This document shows, piece after piece, positions 13,009 through 33,086 of a DNA stretch of 58,998 nucleotides. The stretch is from positions 1 through 58,998 of IMG/VR virus record IMGVR_UViG_3300012206_000008, one strand, 5' to 3'. Each line of letters begins with the position of its first letter. Position 1 is the stretch's first letter. Below the pieces are notes generated by a model. The model was given only the letters and a program-made list of their open reading frames with translations, made no database searches and was not told where the DNA came from. This DNA comes from a virus. Lineage: Duplodnaviria > Caudoviricetes. The translations under genes and the position numbers were made by a program.

Positions 13009-13791
13009 CTACTTTTCAGGATGTTTATTAGACTTCTGAGAGTTACACTTTCGGCAAGCGGGGACACAGTTCTCTTTGGTTGTACCGGCTCCATGTCCGA
13101 TAGGGATATAGTGCTCAAGGGCTTCAAATCGAGTACTTTGACAGTAGGCACAAAGAAATTTGAAGGATTGGAGCGTTTGTACCCATTCTGCTACCGTTAA
13201 CGTAGCTGGCTCACCTGCTTGTTTAGCACGATATTTCTGGGAGCGAACGCGAAGGATTTCATGTGCATAGCGACCTTTACATTCTGCACATACCTCGTAA
13301 TGCATGTCAGTCATAGGGCGTGTCCGACAAATCAAGCAAACCATTGGCTTTGGTGCCGATATCACTGGTAATTGTGGAATAACTTTTATAGGTGTCGTCT
13401 GTACTATCGCAAGTTTTTTTGAGTGGAATGCTACAGGTAAAGTGGTTGTCAATGCACAAAGAACTAGCACAGGAGCCAGCCCCACCATAAGAGGATCAAT
13501 GGTGAAAAGTTGATGTGAATATTCTGCCAACTTCCCTAATTGCTCAAAATGTTGAGCATAGACGCTGCCTAACCACCAACTCATACCAACCCATAAGAAC
13601 ATAGCCAACCAAAGACAAAAACGTGTAATCTTATCCTCACAGAAGCGTAAAGCAATTTGAAGGATAATCACGAAAGTCACAAATGCTATAGCAGGAACAA
13701 TACCTATGAAGTAAGCAACATGAACCGTGATATTGAGCAGAATAGGGGCACATATTAGAAAACACCCCCCATACATCCATATGTTTCTCAT
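13009..13791 (-). CDS. Membrane-anchored HNH endonuclease
   Basis: N-terminal TM helices; CAYC...EHYIP...NCVPACRKCNSQK; GGGAG RBS. Confidence 0.75.
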   Translation of the reverse strand: MRNIWMYGGCFLICAPILLNITVHVAYFIGIVPAIAFVTFVIILQIALRFCEDKITRFCLWLAMFLWVGMSWWLGSVYAQHFEQLGKLAEYSHQLFTIDPLMVGLAPVLVLCALTTTLPVAFHSKKLAIVQTTPIKVIPQLPVISAPKPMVCLICRTRPMTDMHYEVCAECKGRYAHEILRVRSQKYRAKQAGEPATLTVAEWVQTLQSFKFLCAYCQSTRFEALEHYIPIGHGAGTTKENCVPACRKCNSQKSNKHPEK

Positions 13792-13804
13792 TTTACAATT
13801 CTCC

Positions 13805-15241
13805 CTAGAATAACTCTGCAATAATTTCACTGAGTTCATGAGCCGCTTTTTTATAAGGTGCCCCACCTTGTTTTGTCGTCACTCCCCAAACCTCTTCAAT
13901 AATTTTCGAGGTGGGTGTTTTTTCTCTGAGCAATTCTCGTACACGGGTCGCACGTGCCGAAATTGGTCTTTCTATCGGGATTTCCACGGAATCCGTGGTG
14001 GAATCCGTGGAAAAAGCTGCAAAATCTGGCATTTCTGTCCGTGAGAAATCCGTGGTTTTGACGTGGGGATAAATCGTCAATAATTCTTCAAGAGCATCAT
14101 TCGATGCATAAGGTACCCGAATCAGTGATGCCTGTGGGGTTGCTTGACTTCTGAGCATCACCAGCCCTTTGCCTAGTCCACCGTCGTCTACCGTCCCCTT
14201 CACATCTAAGAGAACACGCGCCGATGTCGCATCACCACCGACATAGAACGCCGTGCGAAAACAATCCCTGACCGCTCCCGTTCCACCCACTGTTTTGACC
14301 AGCCAATCTTGCGCAGCACTCACCAGGTACAAGCCCACTTTGCGACCTTCTCGCAACAAATCTGCCATGTATTCCGGCGCCTCTGGAATACGCTTCACTA
14401 TCGCTGGGAGTTCATCAATTGCTAGGAAGATGGGATCACCCATGGGTTCCATATCACGCCGTCTCTCTAATCGAGATGGCAATTCTTTGAGAGCCAACCA
14501 GGACAACACATCCTTAATAGCTGGATACATGATAGCCGGTTCCATCATGAGTCTTCTCGCAATAGGTCGCCAGTCTTCATCACTCTCAACATCGACTGGC
14601 GTATAGTGTGGATCGGCCAGGATGACACGCGCACCAACACACAGCAATTGTGGCAGTAAGAGCCTCATCAAATTACTTTTCCCACCTCCAGTGGCTCCTG
14701 CTAAGGCTACATGACACAAAGCTTTGACAGGGACGGTTACACGTTCGCCACCAGGGCCGAGAGCTAGCAAGATTTGTTGCTGGGAGGGTCGCCAATCATC
14801 AAGGATATCGGCAAAGTCGCACGGGCCAGGAAGAGCAAGCCGAGGTGATGGTAATCCTTTGGGTTGCTCAGACTCAACCACCTGCGCAGGCTCTACAGCT
14901 TTGATGTTATAGCGGTATTGCTCGCGAGGGTGTGCCGCCTCAACCTGACGTGCAGATGCGTGATAAATGCCTTTGAACGTGCGTATGATGACCACATCGC
15001 CTTTATGAACGACTGTGGCACTATTGAAGACATGCACGGCTAGACTCACCACCAGCAACACGGCGGCTATCTCAAAGAGGATCATGAAGATGTAGAGAGA
15101 CACAAACAAGAATTGACCAAAGGCGTTGACTTGCTCAGGATGGTTCTTATTCATCCACCACAGCACATAGCCCATAGTCATCACCAGGACAATCAATCCG
15201 GCAAGAGCTAGGTACATGAGAAATGGTACAGCCTTTTTCAT
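13805..15241 (-). CDS. FtsK/SpoIIIE-family ATPase (TraB-like DNA translocase)
   Basis: Two N-terminal TM; Walker A GATGGGKS; Walker B FLAIDE; REGRKVGLYLVSAAQ; helical wHTH-like C-terminus. Confidence 0.8.
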   Translation of the reverse strand: MKKAVPFLMYLALAGLIVLVMTMGYVLWWMNKNHPEQVNAFGQFLFVSLYIFMILFEIAAVLLVVSLAVHVFNSATVVHKGDVVIIRTFKGIYHASARQVEAAHPREQYRYNIKAVEPAQVVESEQPKGLPSPRLALPGPCDFADILDDWRPSQQQILLALGPGGERVTVPVKALCHVALAGATGGGKSNLMRLLLPQLLCVGARVILADPHYTPVDVESDEDWRPIARRLMMEPAIMYPAIKDVLSWLALKELPSRLERRRDMEPMGDPIFLAIDELPAIVKRIPEAPEYMADLLREGRKVGLYLVSAAQDWLVKTVGGTGAVRDCFRTAFYVGGDATSARVLLDVKGTVDDGGLGKGLVMLRSQATPQASLIRVPYASNDALEELLTIYPHVKTTDFSRTEMPDFAAFSTDSTTDSVEIPIERPISARATRVRELLREKTPTSKIIEEVWGVTTKQGGAPYKKAAHELSEIIAELF

Positions 15242-15462
15242 ATCGATACCCCAAGTGTGGCATACGCCATCTGTGTCTTTTGAGAGGTCATCACCAACAC
15301 TATCACTTGCCTCGACATCCACCAGAACCCAACGAAAACGGCGATGGTGAGAGCACCCACAAACGCAAAAACAAACCCGACACCCACCAATAAAGAGATG
15401 AGTATCCTCAATCCAATTAATGCGCTCGCATCGTAGTGTGTTAAAATTTCTGTGTTCGACAT
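15238..15462 (-). CDS. Small membrane protein
   Basis: Hydrophobic; ATGA-coupled to the ATPase. Confidence 0.6.
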   Translation of the reverse strand: MSNTEILTHYDASALIGLRILISLLVGVGFVFAFVGALTIAVFVGFWWMSRQVIVLVMTSQKTQMAYATLGVSI

Positions 15463-15517
15463 GATGAACTTCTTTCATCCGGTTCGAGTATGGGCACCCG
15501 ACACGTGCCCATTTGTT

Positions 15518-28535: not shown

Positions 28536-28738
28536 ACTGTCCCTGCCTTTTCTCGCTGCTCACGGGCGCTCTCCCAACCTTCTAACAAGATTTCTATTAC
28601 CTGGTCAGTGAGACGGATGAACTGCGCTCCTGTCATGGTTTGTACTGCGATAGTGAGGACAAGTTGGAGACGGTCGTCATTCTCGCGTGCCATGTCCAGG
28701 ACGATTTTCGCGATGTGCTGATACTCTTGCTCGCTCAT
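28532..28738 (-). CDS. Hypothetical protein
   Basis: ATGA coupling. Confidence 0.5.
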   Translation of the reverse strand: MSEQEYQHIAKIVLDMARENDDRLQLVLTIAVQTMTGAQFIRLTDQVIEILLEGWESAREQREKAGTV

Positions 28739-28992
28739 GCCGCTTTCTCTCTTTCCACATCACTGCACATGGCACACACGACCTGCATGGTCATCACCCA
28801 CGCACGCAATTCTAGCCAAGCTTGCCGGTACGCAGCAATGGCCTGTATGGCTTCCCAGTGGGCTTGTATGGTTTCACGGGATGAATGCCGCCCATCATGG
28901 TAGGGGTTGTCACGGTCGGCTTGCTCACAGGCAAGGTAACGGGCTATGGCAGCATGTCTAGCTTCTCTGAAACAGGTAATATCTTCTGACAT
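28735..28992 (-). CDS. Hypothetical protein
   Basis: GAGGAG RBS; coupling. Confidence 0.5.
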   Translation of the reverse strand: MSEDITCFREARHAAIARYLACEQADRDNPYHDGRHSSRETIQAHWEAIQAIAAYRQAWLELRAWVMTMQVVCAMCSDVEREKAA

Positions 28993-29174
28993 GGGGGTAT
29001 TTTCTCCTCACTTCCAACTTCCCTGTTGCTTTGTGTGACTTGCTCTAACTCTGTTCTCACCAACCGAGCTAAAACGGTTTGCATCGTCTCGTGAGTAAGA
29101 GCAGCAATAATCTTGAGTTGCTGACGAGTTTCATCAGACGCTCGCAGCATCGGCTTCTTTTGTTCTGTGTCCAT
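28944..29174 (-). CDS. Ribbon-helix-helix-like regulator, probably leaderless
   Basis: MLRASDETRQQLKIIAALTHETMQTVLARLV; TTGAAA-17-TACTAT ends 6 nt before ATG. Confidence 0.55.
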   Translation of the reverse strand: MDTEQKKPMLRASDETRQQLKIIAALTHETMQTVLARLVRTELEQVTQSNREVGSEEKIPPCQKILPVSEKLDMLP

Positions 29175-29318
29175 GTATACATAGTACCATACGTATACAG
29201 AGTTTTCAATCCTTGCTTGGGTAGTACCTCCGTATCGTTGTGTTTGAATGTATACCTGAGATGCATTATACTATCTTGTGGATTTTTATATTTTTGCAAA
29301 GTAGAGGAGAGGAAGAAT

Positions 29319-29654
29319 ATGAGCGAACAATCGAGCATGAGTTTTCTTGGGACTCGCCCAGCATTGACACAACGCACATCACCTACCTGGGGTGAAACCC
29401 CGCTACCAGAGGCAAGTGTAGAGCCAACGAGTGGCATAACCGTCGGCCAGGTAGTACACTTTGTGCCTGTTCATGCTATGACTACCGCTTGCGAACATGC
29501 CACGATAGAAGAAGTATGGCAAGCGGCTAACGGGATTGTCAGTCTGCGCTTTGCCGATGGGCAGGTGCTTCATCGGATAGGCTATAGTGCTGAGATGCTA
29601 GGTAACTCGTGGCACTTCAACAACCAATGTGAACTGGGCACAGAAGCCTCGTGA
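29319..29654 (+). CDS. Hypothetical protein
   Basis: GAGGA RBS; TVGQVVHFV motif. Confidence 0.55.
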   Translation: MSEQSSMSFLGTRPALTQRTSPTWGETPLPEASVEPTSGITVGQVVHFVPVHAMTTACEHATIEEVWQAANGIVSLRFADGQVLHRIGYSAEMLGNSWHFNNQCELGTEAS

Positions 29655-29683
29655 TGCTCCCCCATGGACATGCGCCTGATGGC

Positions 29684-29783
29684 TTGACCCTTTTGCCACA
29701 TGCGCTATACTGGAAATAGGCCAGCAGCCCCTATCAACAACTTGGAGATCAACATCAACTACATACTGCTGGCTTCTCTTTTT
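29684..29783 (+). ncRNA. Small RNA unit 1: promoter plus stem-closed 38-nt loop
   Basis: TTGACC-16-TATACT; GCCAGCAG 29720-29727 pairs with CTGCTGGC 29766-29773; T-rich tail. Confidence 0.55.
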
Positions 29784-29786
29784 GCC

Positions 29787-29903
29787 TTGACACTTCCCTA
29801 TCTGTGACATACACTAAGCCTGGCGGCCAGTGGCACTACATATCACGTACTACACAACGATGCACGAGGCTTTTTTCCTTGCCACTGGCAAGCCCCCCCG
29901 TTT
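29787..29903 (+). ncRNA. Small RNA unit 2: promoter plus stem-closed 44-nt loop
   Basis: TTGACA-17-TACACT; GCCAGTGGCA 29826-29835 pairs with TGCCACTGGC 29880-29889. Confidence 0.55.
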
Positions 29904-29988
29904 GCTTGACACTTCCCACTACAACGACGTACACTAGAAACAGGCCAGCAGCAACGAGATGGATTCTCGCGAGTGGAGGGAAATTGCT

Positions 29989-30242
29989 GGTTTCAAAAAC
30001 CATAGACATTTCTCCCATTACCGTTTTTGAGGGGCTGTGGGAGAATAGGTCTATGGATGGGATGAGAACCAAGTTTCATCCATTCAGTACCGTGAGTTAC
30101 ACGGGAACTGGCAGGACTTGAGTCCTGTAAAACGCCTGATTGAGAGAGCGTAAGACGGGGTGACAACCTCGCAGTTTTCGTTGATGCAGGAACCGGCCAT
30201 CGTTTATGGCTTGTCCATAAACGGGTAAGTACCGGATAACGG
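29989..30242 (+). mobile_element. IS607/TnpB-derived non-autonomous remnant (right end/omegaRNA scaffold at about 30086-30242)
   Basis: TACCGTGAGTTACACGGGAA...ACGCCTG...GAG...GTAAGAC...TCGTTGATGCAGGAACC...TTTATGGCTTGTCCATAAA..GGGTAAGT...AACGG resembles recalled tnpB-element right ends; CCATAGA/TCTATGG motifs on the left; left boundary uncertain. Confidence 0.55.
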
Positions 30243-30281
30243 AAATTGCTGGAAGGTTCTCCTTGTGATTGTCTTGTCATG

Positions 30282-30334
30282 ACAAAGGAAGCTCGCTTGA
30301 TGATTGATGTGATCAAGCGAGCTTCCTTTGTTTT
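30282..30334 (+). terminator. Strong intrinsic terminator
   Basis: ACAAAGGAAGCTCGCTTGAT/ATCAAGCGAGCTTCCTTTGT perfect 20-bp inverted repeat then TTT. Confidence 0.75.
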
Positions 30335-30545
30335 CGCACTCTTCCCCCACTATTGCTAATGGATTTCTCTGTCTTCCCCTCAATTGGTACAAAAATATGG
30401 GAAAATAGCTATCATGTTGTGTTATACTTCTAAAGTATGCCTCTACCTCCAAGCATTCAGTTTTTGTTTAGTGTGTGTTTGATAATGCATTTTTGTACAG
30501 ATAAACTTTTTCCAAGGAAGAATATAGTATTGAAAGGTCAATACA

Positions 30546-30944
30546 ATGCCCACACAACCCGTCGTTTTGATTGTTGATGACCAGGCGGATATCCGAGAGA
30601 TGTTGTCAGTGGCTCTCCATATGTGGGGTTACAGGGTACTCACGGCGAGCAATGGTGACACCGCGTTGGGAATTATCGTGAATGATAGGCCGGATGTGAT
30701 CCTCTTGGATAGTTTGATGACTCCCATGAGCGGAGAAGCCTTCATCAAACAACTGTCAGTTCATGAGCGTACAATCCCTATTATTGTGATGACCGCTCTC
30801 ACTGATCGGAAAACACTTGATCGCATGTGGTCATTGGGAGTGAAACAAGTGGTCACGAAGCCATTTCGTTTGGCGGCTTTGCAAGAGCATCTCTTGTCTG
30901 TCAAAGCGGCTATGTACTCTTTATCGTCATGCGTATATAGATAA
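30546..30944 (+). CDS. Single-domain response regulator (CheY-like receiver)
   Basis: VLIVDDQ, PDVILLD (phospho-Asp), IIVMTA, VTKPF. Confidence 0.9.
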   Translation: MPTQPVVLIVDDQADIREMLSVALHMWGYRVLTASNGDTALGIIVNDRPDVILLDSLMTPMSGEAFIKQLSVHERTIPIIVMTALTDRKTLDRMWSLGVKQVVTKPFRLAALQEHLLSVKAAMYSLSSCVYR

Positions 30945-31076
30945 GTGTGTATTTAGTTGTACATGCGGATGTGGATAAGTGGTGCTAGATGTGGAAAACT
31001 TAACCGGAATGGGGAGAACTCCATAGGAGAAACACGGTTTTGTTGAGATTTCTCCATGGGGCTTACGGTATGACTC

Positions 31077-31190
31077 TGCTATACTACCACAAGCAGAAAA
31101 AGCCGCAGATGGTTGGGGTGAAGTCGATGTGAAGTGTGGCACTGCGGACGAAAAACGGCTGGGAGGATTCATTCCCCCAGCCGCTTTTGT
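31077..31190 (+). ncRNA. Putative small RNA with terminator
   Basis: Extended -10 TGCTATACT; CCGCAG/CTGCGG stem; CGGCTGGG/CCCAGCCG terminator plus TTTT. Confidence 0.45.
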
Positions 31191-31301
31191 GTGCTTCAAC
31201 CGCCCCACTGTCTACTTATCCCCACAAGCACATTTCAATTATGCCTTGCTTAGTGGTTCGAGGGATAGGGGCTTAGGTACTTAATCTGTAGTACTTGTAG
31301 G

Positions 31302-31520
31302 CTACTCTATCTCTTTTAATGTCAATTCTAGATTTGTAGCCACAGTATGTATAGCCACTTGCATGGCTTCCCATCGTGTTGCTGCTAGGGCATACTCATA
31401 GCCCGATTGGGCATTCAGGCTTTCTGCACAGAGTTTACGGGCAGCTCGCATGCGCCCATAGTAGTAGTGGTTGAGACGGTTGAGGACTTCCAGGATGGTG
31501 CTTGTGCTGATTTCATTCAA
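31302..31520 (-). CDS. Hypothetical protein
   Basis: Coupled, end of leftward operon. Confidence 0.5.
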   Translation of the reverse strand: MNEISTSTILEVLNRLNHYYYGRMRAARKLCAESLNAQSGYEYALAATRWEAMQVAIHTVATNLELTLKEIE

Positions 31521-31780
31521 CCTAACAACCTCGTTTCATCTTCGATTGGATAGACTACGCTACCATCAACAACCGTGCGAATGACATCTTGAACAAACGG
31601 AATATCCTGATGCTCGATGAAAATGCACAGACAGGGGTGCCATCCCTCTTTGATGAAAGAGTGTGGAGGTCTTTCGATGTATCGCTCGCCTTTGCCATGA
31701 CAGCGTGAGCAATCAGGATAGGGAGCATATTTGGCCTTTGGGTATTTAGCTTTCAATTCATCGGATAGCTCGCTCATCAC
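31517..31780 (-). CDS. Hypothetical Zn-finger protein
   Basis: CSRCHGKG...CLC. Confidence 0.5.
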   Translation of the reverse strand: MMSELSDELKAKYPKAKYAPYPDCSRCHGKGERYIERPPHSFIKEGWHPCLCIFIEHQDIPFVQDVIRTVVDGSVVYPIEDETRLLG

Positions 31781-32037
31781 TCAACCTCTTTCCATTCTTT
31801 CCGCACAATTTGCATTTCATTTTCGATGTTCTCGGAACGTTCTGCTAGTGTATCGCGAAATTGTTTCCATGAAGCCTGAAAGTCTTCACATGCCGCATTA
31901 GCCACATGGACAAAGCTCCAATTGCAAAAGACATGATAGTTGTGGATAAGCAATTGTTGCTCCCTGACTTGCTGCTCTAACGTCTCTATACGCCGTATCA
32001 GGCTCATAGTGTCTAGCGGTGGGTATTGCTCGCTCAT
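31777..32037 (-). CDS. Hypothetical coiled-coil protein
   Basis: ATGA coupling. Confidence 0.5.
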   Translation of the reverse strand: MSEQYPPLDTMSLIRRIETLEQQVREQQLLIHNYHVFCNWSFVHVANAACEDFQASWKQFRDTLAERSENIENEMQIVRKEWKEVE

Positions 32038-32249
32038 TGTAGTTTTCCTCTGCATCCTGGACAAACTGAGAGCGGGTCAGCATCAGGCGCAATGCGGTAT
32101 TCATAGGTCAGTGTCCGCTCATAATTGACGGTCGTGGTTAGTTCTTGTAGAGGTATTCCTTGAGGAAGACTGGTACGCTTAAACCTCCATATGCTCCGTC
32201 GATAGAGAGGAGTGCCACAATTGGCACATCTGCCTAGTTCATCGCTCAT
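32034..32249 (-). CDS. Zn-ribbon protein
   Basis: CANCG...CPGC. Confidence 0.5.
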   Translation of the reverse strand: MSDELGRCANCGTPLYRRSIWRFKRTSLPQGIPLQELTTTVNYERTLTYEYRIAPDADPLSVCPGCRGKLQ

Positions 32250-32754
32250 TGTACTTGTTCCATATCTTCCAGGCTTCCGGTACTAGCTCTGCATTTTCGT
32301 AGAGGTTTCCAATAATCTCGACACCGAGTACATCGGGATTAGAGCGGATCGCCTCACTGATCTTTTGCAAGTCAGAAATGTCCCATCCTACTACAAAGGT
32401 TTCGGTCACGGTGGTGATATCGCTTTCCTTGACACCTTCTGGCAAGTGTAGCCATGGCTCATTCCCAAACTTGCTAAAGTCATTGCCGGCAAAGTACCCA
32501 CGCCTAATGATATCACCTTCAAAAATCAATTTGTTATCCTTGTCCTTCAAGGTGGTGTATTGCATCAATGCCATATTTTTTGCCACGATGAAATAGAAGT
32601 ACTTCCCATTGACAATCTCCATCTTGTGCTTGTATTGCTGGAAAGTTTCATCGTCGTCATGCATCTCGACATACACCAGATGCTCAAAGGGATAGGCGTT
32701 CTGGTACATATGTCCATATTCGATATCCCAGGCGCGGAATTTTGTCTCTTTCAT
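32239..32754 (-). CDS. YopX-family protein
   Basis: KFRAWD...LMQYTTLKDKDNKLIFEGDII...EIIGNLYEN. Confidence 0.88.
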   Translation of the reverse strand: MKETKFRAWDIEYGHMYQNAYPFEHLVYVEMHDDDETFQQYKHKMEIVNGKYFYFIVAKNMALMQYTTLKDKDNKLIFEGDIIRRGYFAGNDFSKFGNEPWLHLPEGVKESDITTVTETFVVGWDISDLQKISEAIRSNPDVLGVEIIGNLYENAELVPEAWKIWNKYNER

Positions 32755-33086
32755 GATGCTTTCTCTCTGAGCGTAGCTTTCTCTCTCAGCAATTGTATCA
32801 CTTCATCGATTTGATGTGGCTTCCAGATATAGACTTCTACCCCTGGACATGTTGAGAGGGTAGCAATCCAGGTTTTTTGTTCTGGACGTAACCGGCCTTT
32901 TTCTGTTTTGAGTTCTGCCATGATACATCTTCCAGGTTTGGTCATCACTAAATCAACAAATCCTCTTTGGCATCGTCGGCTATCAAAAGTGTGATAAACG
33001 AGATAGCCTAGCAGTTCAGCGGCTTGGATGATTGTAGATTGAAAGTCTCGCTCACTTACTGATTGGTACAGCATCTTCTTGCTCAT
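32751..33086 (-). CDS. VRR-NUC domain nuclease
   Basis: SERDFQ...GFVDLVM...AELKTEKGRLRPEQKTW. Confidence 0.85.
   Translation of the reverse strand: MSKKMLYQSVSERDFQSTIIQAAELLGYLVYHTFDSRRCQRGFVDLVMTKPGRCIMAELKTEKGRLRPEQKTWIATLSTCPGVEVYIWKPHQIDEVIQLLREKATLREKAS

Follow-up and report, generated by a model that had tools for sequence, protein, structure and literature searches.

Short stretches of complementarity allow Cas9/Cas12-type effectors to bind and repress without cutting, as is the case for tracr-L and scaRNA, and Cascade acts likewise in CreTA. Gene-less PATE-like elements of the IS200/IS605 type often encode guide RNAs that are used in trans by TnpB of other copies, according to Meers et al. 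(PMC10055086). The IStron preprint of Zedaveinyte et al. (10.1101/2023.11.20.567912) states that a GG core is a strict requirement of the IS607 transposase, whose preferred sequence, TGGG, is also the TAM of TnpB; that IS607 has no inverted repeats, makes no target duplication and needs a left end of ∼40 bp; and that the construct bearing the guide RNA at the right end measures 221 bp.

The locus considered here lies in a phage genome and carries two copies of a 12-nt repeat that together resemble a guide and its own target. The main value of our analysis is corrective, in that this apparent self-targeting guide is better read as the scar of an insertion. We estimate at about 0.7 the probability that a non-coding folded element without terminal inverted repeats, most likely a gene-less PATE-like derivative of IS607 or IS605, was inserted into the small-RNA gene unit 3, the two 12-mers being its junctions. 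The repeat family concerned, which folds strongly and stops sharply at a GG, is undescribed; its copy here occupies a small-RNA gene of the phage and is preceded by a promoter of the phage.

The insert resembles PATE-like elements in being short, non-coding and multi-copy, in having hairpins near its ends and a sharp right end followed by a variable flank, and in carrying no nuclease gene. It differs from them in that no family copy adjoining a tnpB gene was found, that its end hairpins are dissimilar, that it is flanked by a 10-nt duplication, whereas they insert with none, and that it sits in a phage small-RNA gene. With IS607 and IStron elements, it has in common a GG at both junctions, a G-rich left motif (AGGG here, TGGG there), the lack of inverted repeats and a size that fits a left end of ∼40 bp plus a guide-RNA right end of ∼220 bp. 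Unlike those elements, it comes with neither a serine transposase nor TnpB, gives no group I intron signal and shows a duplication beyond the GG. Among the known kinds, the best fit is accordingly an element of IS607/IS605 type that has no genes but carries a guide-RNA scaffold, an assignment that we hold tentatively and at less than even odds.

The phage and its small-RNA locus

The DNA analysed, hereafter the window, spans an entire IMG/VR virus record of 58,998 bases, 99% complete by CheckV, which encodes a terminase, an SPP1-type portal, a Mu-F-like protein, a major head protein and a primase–polymerase. The named matches were too distant to identify the host, and a tRNA/tmRNA search returned none. 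On the minus strand (13009–15478), a protein with an HNH endonuclease domain adjoins a HerA/DUF87-like ATPase.

Three promoter-plus-hairpin units lie between a 111-aa gene that ends at 29654 and a receiver-domain gene at 30546–30944 (Table 1). The latter encodes a stand-alone response-regulator receiver domain of 132 aa, which is 73% identical in the related phage and ∼40% identical to its nearest cellular relatives. The receiver protein and this relative, 73% identical to it, were used as bait and led to L002, L003 and L004, three metagenome contigs from a related phage. The tandem units (29684–29990 and 30253–30331 in the window, 2700–2965 in L004) have the appearance of genes for small RNAs. 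The first 16 transcribed letters are common to units 1 and 3, both of which are conserved in the related phage, from which unit 2 (∼29776–29895) is missing. The fold from promoter 3 to the terminator hairpin (29936–30340) has an energy of −170.8 kcal/mol (z −10.0), and 0/100 shuffles were as stable.

The stem of the unit-3 5′ hairpin keeps its pairing in L004, where the pair 29949–29986 changes from C–G to T–A and another C–G pair becomes T·G. The left repeat copy, which contributes the 3′ arm, is considered native because the stem is maintained through this one double change and one wobble. The complete identity of the unit-3 tail is found between phages that are otherwise ∼72% alike, and its sequence resembles an anti-Shine–Dalgarno seed; a site complementary to it was looked for elsewhere in the window and none was found.

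Table 1. Features of the small-RNA locus and of the inserted element (window coordinates)
Feature	Position	Strand	Remarks
Promoter-like site 1 (unit 1)	29684–29711	+	10/12 consensus positions; unit 1 conserved in L004
Promoter-like site 2 (unit 2)	29787–29815	+	Consensus site scan; whole unit missing from L004, which has two units only (by eye)
Promoter-like site 3 (unit 3; would read into insert)	29906–29935	+	10/12 consensus positions; conserved in L004
Unit-3 5′ hairpin	29942–29993	+	Minimum-free-energy fold; 5′ arm 29945–29950, 3′ arm 29985–29990 inside left repeat copy
Left 12-nt repeat copy	29979–29990	+	Aligns to the single copy in L004; native phage sequence or, on one reading, first 10 nt of element
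Inserted structured element	29991–30242	+	Left edge ambiguous (29981 or 29991); right edge 30242 set by other family copies; absent from L002–L004
Conserved core of element family	30085–30195	+	93% match (8 differences/111 nt) in a contig of depth ∼21, versus ∼3 for the phage
Terminal hairpin (30203–30225) and 17-nt tail ending in GG	30203–30242	+	From folds; several distinct short contigs stop at 30242
Right 12-nt repeat copy	30241–30252	+	GG of element end (2 nt), then 10 native flanking nt; its counterpart in L004 is the one copy to which the left repeat also aligns
Flank; would act as 16-nt guide in case the element gives rise to a guide RNA of TnpB type	30243–30258	+	Variable in other family copies
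Unit-3 tail	30258–30275	+	Pyrimidine-rich, anti-Shine–Dalgarno-like; 18/18 identical in related phage
Terminator-like hairpin closing unit 3	30282–30331	+	20-nt perfect arms, then T-rich run; equivalent hairpin of different sequence in L004

The repeat pair and the empty site

An exact search of the window found the 12-mer at the two places given by the earlier note on this DNA, both on the + strand, and nowhere else in the 58,998 bases. With up to one mismatch allowed, there are two matches as against 0.34 expected, and two or more arose in 5 of 100 shuffles; for the 10-mer contained in it, present at 29981–29990 and 30243–30252 only, the two matches compare with 0.18 expected (two or more in 1/100 shuffles). 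The motif GAGGG (29976–29980) stands directly 5′ of the left 10-mer, and with a transcription start near 29942, downstream of the third promoter-like site, position 29981 falls ∼40 nt into the transcript. The geometry that the earlier note had described, with the first 10 guide bases matching a site preceded by GAGGG at about +40 of the predicted start, is thus confirmed. The match covers 10 nt of the 16-nt flank that would serve as a guide; a second full match to this flank is absent from the window, and the next best, at 32632, has three mismatches.

Exact direct repeats of at least 12 nt with a spacing of at most 400 nt number 13 in the whole window, whereas 200 dinucleotide shuffles gave 1.2 on average and never more than 4; these repeats, 12–14 nt in length, are about ten times as frequent as in the shuffles. 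Since a 12-nt repeat pair is common in this phage, the case has to rest on the position of the pair. With that many pairs within 400 nt, a single one is unremarkable, and ours could be an unrelated repeat that arose by chance in a repeat-rich phage. The pair, however, coincides to the base with both edges of an insertion and with the boundary of a repeat family, and coincidence therefore appears scarcely credible.

The evidence for an insertion comes from the related phage. L002–L004 are collinear with the window on both sides, with 72% identity over 28572–29798 and 71% over 30258–30518 (stretches of 1,282 and 270 nt). They carry units 1 and 3; missing from them, besides unit 2, are the 262 nt between the repeats, so that the repeat copies form the exact edges of a 262-nt insertion relative to the related phage, the right copy spanning the sharp end of the repeat family described below. 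Separate alignments of the left and right copies lead to one and the same homologous site, which is single in the relative and runs directly into the conserved unit-3 tail. Empty-site alleles, which the earlier note had suggested looking for in related phages, therefore exist, each with one copy of the repeat in the same small-RNA gene. The alternative that the same note had offered, namely a duplication made upon insertion that kept the unit-3 stem, fits the empty site of L004, to which both copies correspond.

A deletion between short direct repeats would likewise leave exactly one copy, as seen here, and both repeat copies can pair with 29945–29950. The structured domain might thus be ancestral to unit 3 and have disappeared from the related phage, through either a deletion between the 12-nt repeats or an excision that left no scar; the one 5′ arm would then have had a choice of two 3′ arms, one in each repeat. 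The direction of change is not fixed by any outgroup. The portal protein, used as bait, yielded 60 related phage records, and small-RNA unit DNA was found in none of the 28 of them searched for it; because these distant relatives are devoid of the units, they do not set the direction, be it gain here or precise loss in the relative. The insert itself was found in 0 of the 50 records searched, which gave two chance-level matches of 14–17 nt only. This absence argues against an ancestral domain, as does the presence of the module elsewhere with unrelated flanks, where it ends inside the repeat zone. Moreover, the insert is 90–93% identical to copies elsewhere, as compared with ∼72% for the flanks between phages, which favours its gain after the split of the phages, in the lineage of the window. 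We consequently consider the loss of an ancestral domain quite unlikely.

At the start of the receiver gene, identity to L004 rises abruptly, from ∼72% on the left side to 95% over the 2,471 nt that follow (window 30532–33000, L004 3233–5701), while L002 and L003 stay at 76–79% in the same region; a recombination mosaic boundary lies ∼280 nt to the right of the insert.

The insert and its repeat family

The insert is 252–262 nt long, depending on the left edge, and folds on its own at −97 kcal/mol (z −6.0), with 0/200 shuffles as stable. Twelve soil-metagenome runs, none of them listed as RNA, hold the stretch wholly or partly; the eight that hold it fully all carry identical words. Contigs were examined from four of the runs, designated X9 to X12. 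Short contigs (98–406 nt) match 30203–30242 with 4–7 differences and then continue with unrelated letters: three contigs lose the match at 30242 in X9, three in X10, one in X11, where a further one ends at 30246, and one in X12. A sharp end of the conserved part followed by a copy-specific flank is thus seen in 4/4 runs examined, one contig stopping at 30246. The boundary at 30242/30243 between a conserved structured module and a variable flank, as drawn in the earlier note, is therefore real.

Family copies in other contigs match the insert at 82–93%. Positions 30085–30115 are identical across three versions, and a 416-nt contig from X12 matches 30034–30242 at 90% and carries yet another 3′ flank. 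The copy of depth ∼21, which lies on an 850-nt contig, where it falls below the match threshold, still forms the terminal hairpin, with changes on both arms as judged by eye. Read on the opposite strand, the flanks of the family copies have nothing in common by way of motif, in keeping with an element end beyond which the sequence varies. Three different 3′ flanks, from X9 and X11, carry a similar motif beyond 30242, ∼15 nt after the element end in two copies and ∼4 nt in the third; this hints that family copies may sit in a repeated target or array. No contig joining across the insert was seen in the four runs.

A conserved core, hairpins with structure-preserving changes and a sharp 3′ end would also suit a conserved non-coding RNA gene of the host, rather than a transposon, of which the phage had captured a copy, in which case the other contigs would represent the same gene in different soil organisms; the absence of both inverted repeats and a transposase points the same way. 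Such a capture is nonetheless unlikely. Many contigs of 98–159 nt contain the last 40 nt only, which is the effect that a multi-copy repeat has on assembly; the 3′ end has no terminator; and the flanks bear GG and the duplication. The lack of a matching Rfam family is weak evidence. At gathering thresholds, Rfam gave no match in the whole window, and at E ≤ 10 over 29500–30500 it gave 13 weak matches, mostly of microRNA models to the terminator hairpin. It was also silent at a genuine TnpA–TnpB element of a related phage (record G014, see below), so that the blank obtained here says little.

Relatives of the insert were also sought in sequence collections. There was no match in a phage collection (701-nt query) or a plasmid collection (262-nt query), pattern scans of IMG/VR with conserved stretches returned 0, and no IMG/VR relatives were obtained with neighbouring proteins as bait. 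An nhmmer search against 121 loci (1.2 Mb) gave no match. Neither 401 genomes of one phylum nor five other genomes contained it (0 in each set), but these were blind samples that carry no weight.

Substitutions between family copies lean to one codon phase (6/7), which could mean a coding remnant. A coding + frame was rejected, as it has three in-frame TGA codons and, when TGA is read as tryptophan, retrieves only three spurious repeat proteins among 1.84 billion. Pfam gave no match for the − frame or for the + frame with TGA as tryptophan, and the third frame (30031–30150, stop read as X) gave nothing among longer proteins. By these tests, the insert contains no recognisable gene.

Nature of the element and origin of the duplication

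Inverted termini are absent at any possible boundary, both by eye and in the inverted-repeat listing, and the hairpins near the two element ends (30000–30056 and 30203–30225) differ in sequence and size. GG is present at both junctions, at 29979–80 or 29989–90 on the left and at 30241–42 on the right. The GG that the earlier note had remarked beside the match hence recurs at the other end, and fits both the GG core of IS607-type elements and the TGGG TAM. A single left junction is known, which reads GAGGG or GCTGG, no other copy having matched the left end at 80% or more.

According to the preferred reading, an element of 252–262 nt, from a repeat family common in the same soil communities, would have landed in unit 3, at the place where the 3′ arm of the 5′ hairpin lies. 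The left repeat copy would then be the native 3′ arm, and the right copy would consist of the terminal GG of the element followed by the same 10 native letters in duplicate, with the 10-nt guide–target match as a by-product of the insertion. The right end may function as a guide-RNA scaffold read from phage promoter 3, of which only a TnpB coming from the host could make use.

The duplication itself is peculiar. In the native sequence, the duplicated 10-mer is bounded by the two left-hand GG dinucleotides, and 10 nt beyond the GG core are found on both sides of the insert, with one copy at the empty site. Since IS605 and IS607 make no target duplication, such elements leave these 10 letters unexplained. 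The arrangement suggests the involvement of two adjacent GG sites, whether in successive steps or through recombination between insertion alleles. One possible route is recombination between two insertion alleles located 10 bp apart; another is an imprecise excision that extended to the next GG, after which the element entered an empty copy anew. Alternatively, the 10-nt repeat may stem from a pre-existing tandem duplication, or from a duplication-making mechanism that would be new for elements without inverted repeats. A 10-nt duplication bounded by two GG could report an unrecognised insertion route or the repeated use of a hot spot.

The search for proteins that could mobilize or use the element was negative. 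In the 99%-complete phage record, the TnpB domains PF07282 and PF01385 (six frames, E ≤ 1), the tyrosine integrase domain PF00589 and the serine transposase/resolvase domain PF00239 were each found in 0/1, and no Y1 transposase partner was present in the phage.

Several other classes were considered. MITEs mobilized by DDE transposases share with the insert a small size, the lack of coding sequence, the occurrence in many copies and a direct duplication of ∼10 bp in the flanks; this class was discarded for want of terminal inverted repeats, in spite of the duplication. A group I intron or IStron was rejected as well, as Intron_gpI had no match at E ≤ 10 in 29500–30500 and the combination of a U ending the 5′ exon with a G ending the intron is impossible, the boundaries that restore the site giving the same letter at both positions. 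The attachment site of a temperate phage in a host RNA gene was discounted owing to the absence of an integrase gene (PF00589 and PF00239, as above). In a bridge-RNA-like reading, the right junction finds its pairing partner in 30172–30182, but a corresponding change was not apparent by eye in the loose ends of other copies.

The apparent guide–target match

The interpretation given in the earlier note holds in part: the scaffold/flank boundary, the GG junctions and the duplication offered as an alternative are supported, while the TnpB-sensing negative feedback loop is not. In such a loop, the first 10 bases of a TnpB guide RNA would pair beside a GG-ending TAM at +40, where a TnpB of the host would bind without cutting and thereby repress promoter 3. 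The boundary on which this scheme depends is real, the left copy is preceded by GAGGG, and TGGG is the motif of IS607-type TnpB. Some nuclease-dead relatives of TnpB use guides of 9–11 nt and repress by binding, as stated in the preprint 10.1101/2023.11.30.569447, and the ∼10-nt match beside a motif in a promoter-proximal region is reminiscent of TldR, as described there, and of partial-match CRISPR self-repression. In addition, a related phage of the clade carries TnpB genes, so that nucleases of this kind circulate in the system.

These resemblances are outweighed by the differences. Contrary to TldR and CRISPR self-repression, the phage has no effector gene, TnpB included, the match stems from the junction duplication, and neither conservation nor covariation shows selection. 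The match extends over part of the guide only and the empty site is single-copy, a simple duplication at an empty site being among the results that the earlier note had named as refuting the loop; as the insertion-associated duplication fully accounts for the 10-nt match, the latter is no evidence of a circuit. Furthermore, the locus is a single instance with the same words in all eight runs that hold the full stretch. We therefore regard the feedback loop as very unlikely.

A bolder scenario would assign two functions to the same RNA. An orphan guide-RNA module transcribed from a strong early phage promoter might recruit the TnpB of the host, its 16-nt flank directing the cutting of phage genomes with an empty site, and hence homing in co-infection, while the 10-nt match beside GAGGG would allow binding without cutting and damp promoter 3. 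Although we judge this scenario very improbable, it would, if true, mean that a virus has the transposon nuclease of its host serve two ends, gene drive and a rheostat for the virus itself. Should the family turn out to be linked to TnpB, the locus would represent a natural case of a virus-carried guide RNA without its nuclease.

TnpB loci in a related phage

The related phage of record G014, a complete genome of 61.5 kb with a portal 67% identical to that of the window, encodes a 491-aa TnpB/Cas12f-like protein (L120 463–1938; PF07282, PF01385 and HTH_OrfB). The gene directly precedes at least seven copies of a 37-nt repeat separated by ∼33-nt spacers (L120 ∼1960–2370), an arrangement that amounts to a compact CRISPR-like locus on a phage. 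The insert has no nucleotide likeness to the TnpA–TnpB element of this phage. That element, a full IS200/IS605-type element on the minus strand (L122 1372–3029), consists of a gene for a 150-aa Y1 transposase overlapping one for a 401-aa TnpB, with a hairpin just 3′ of the stop codon.
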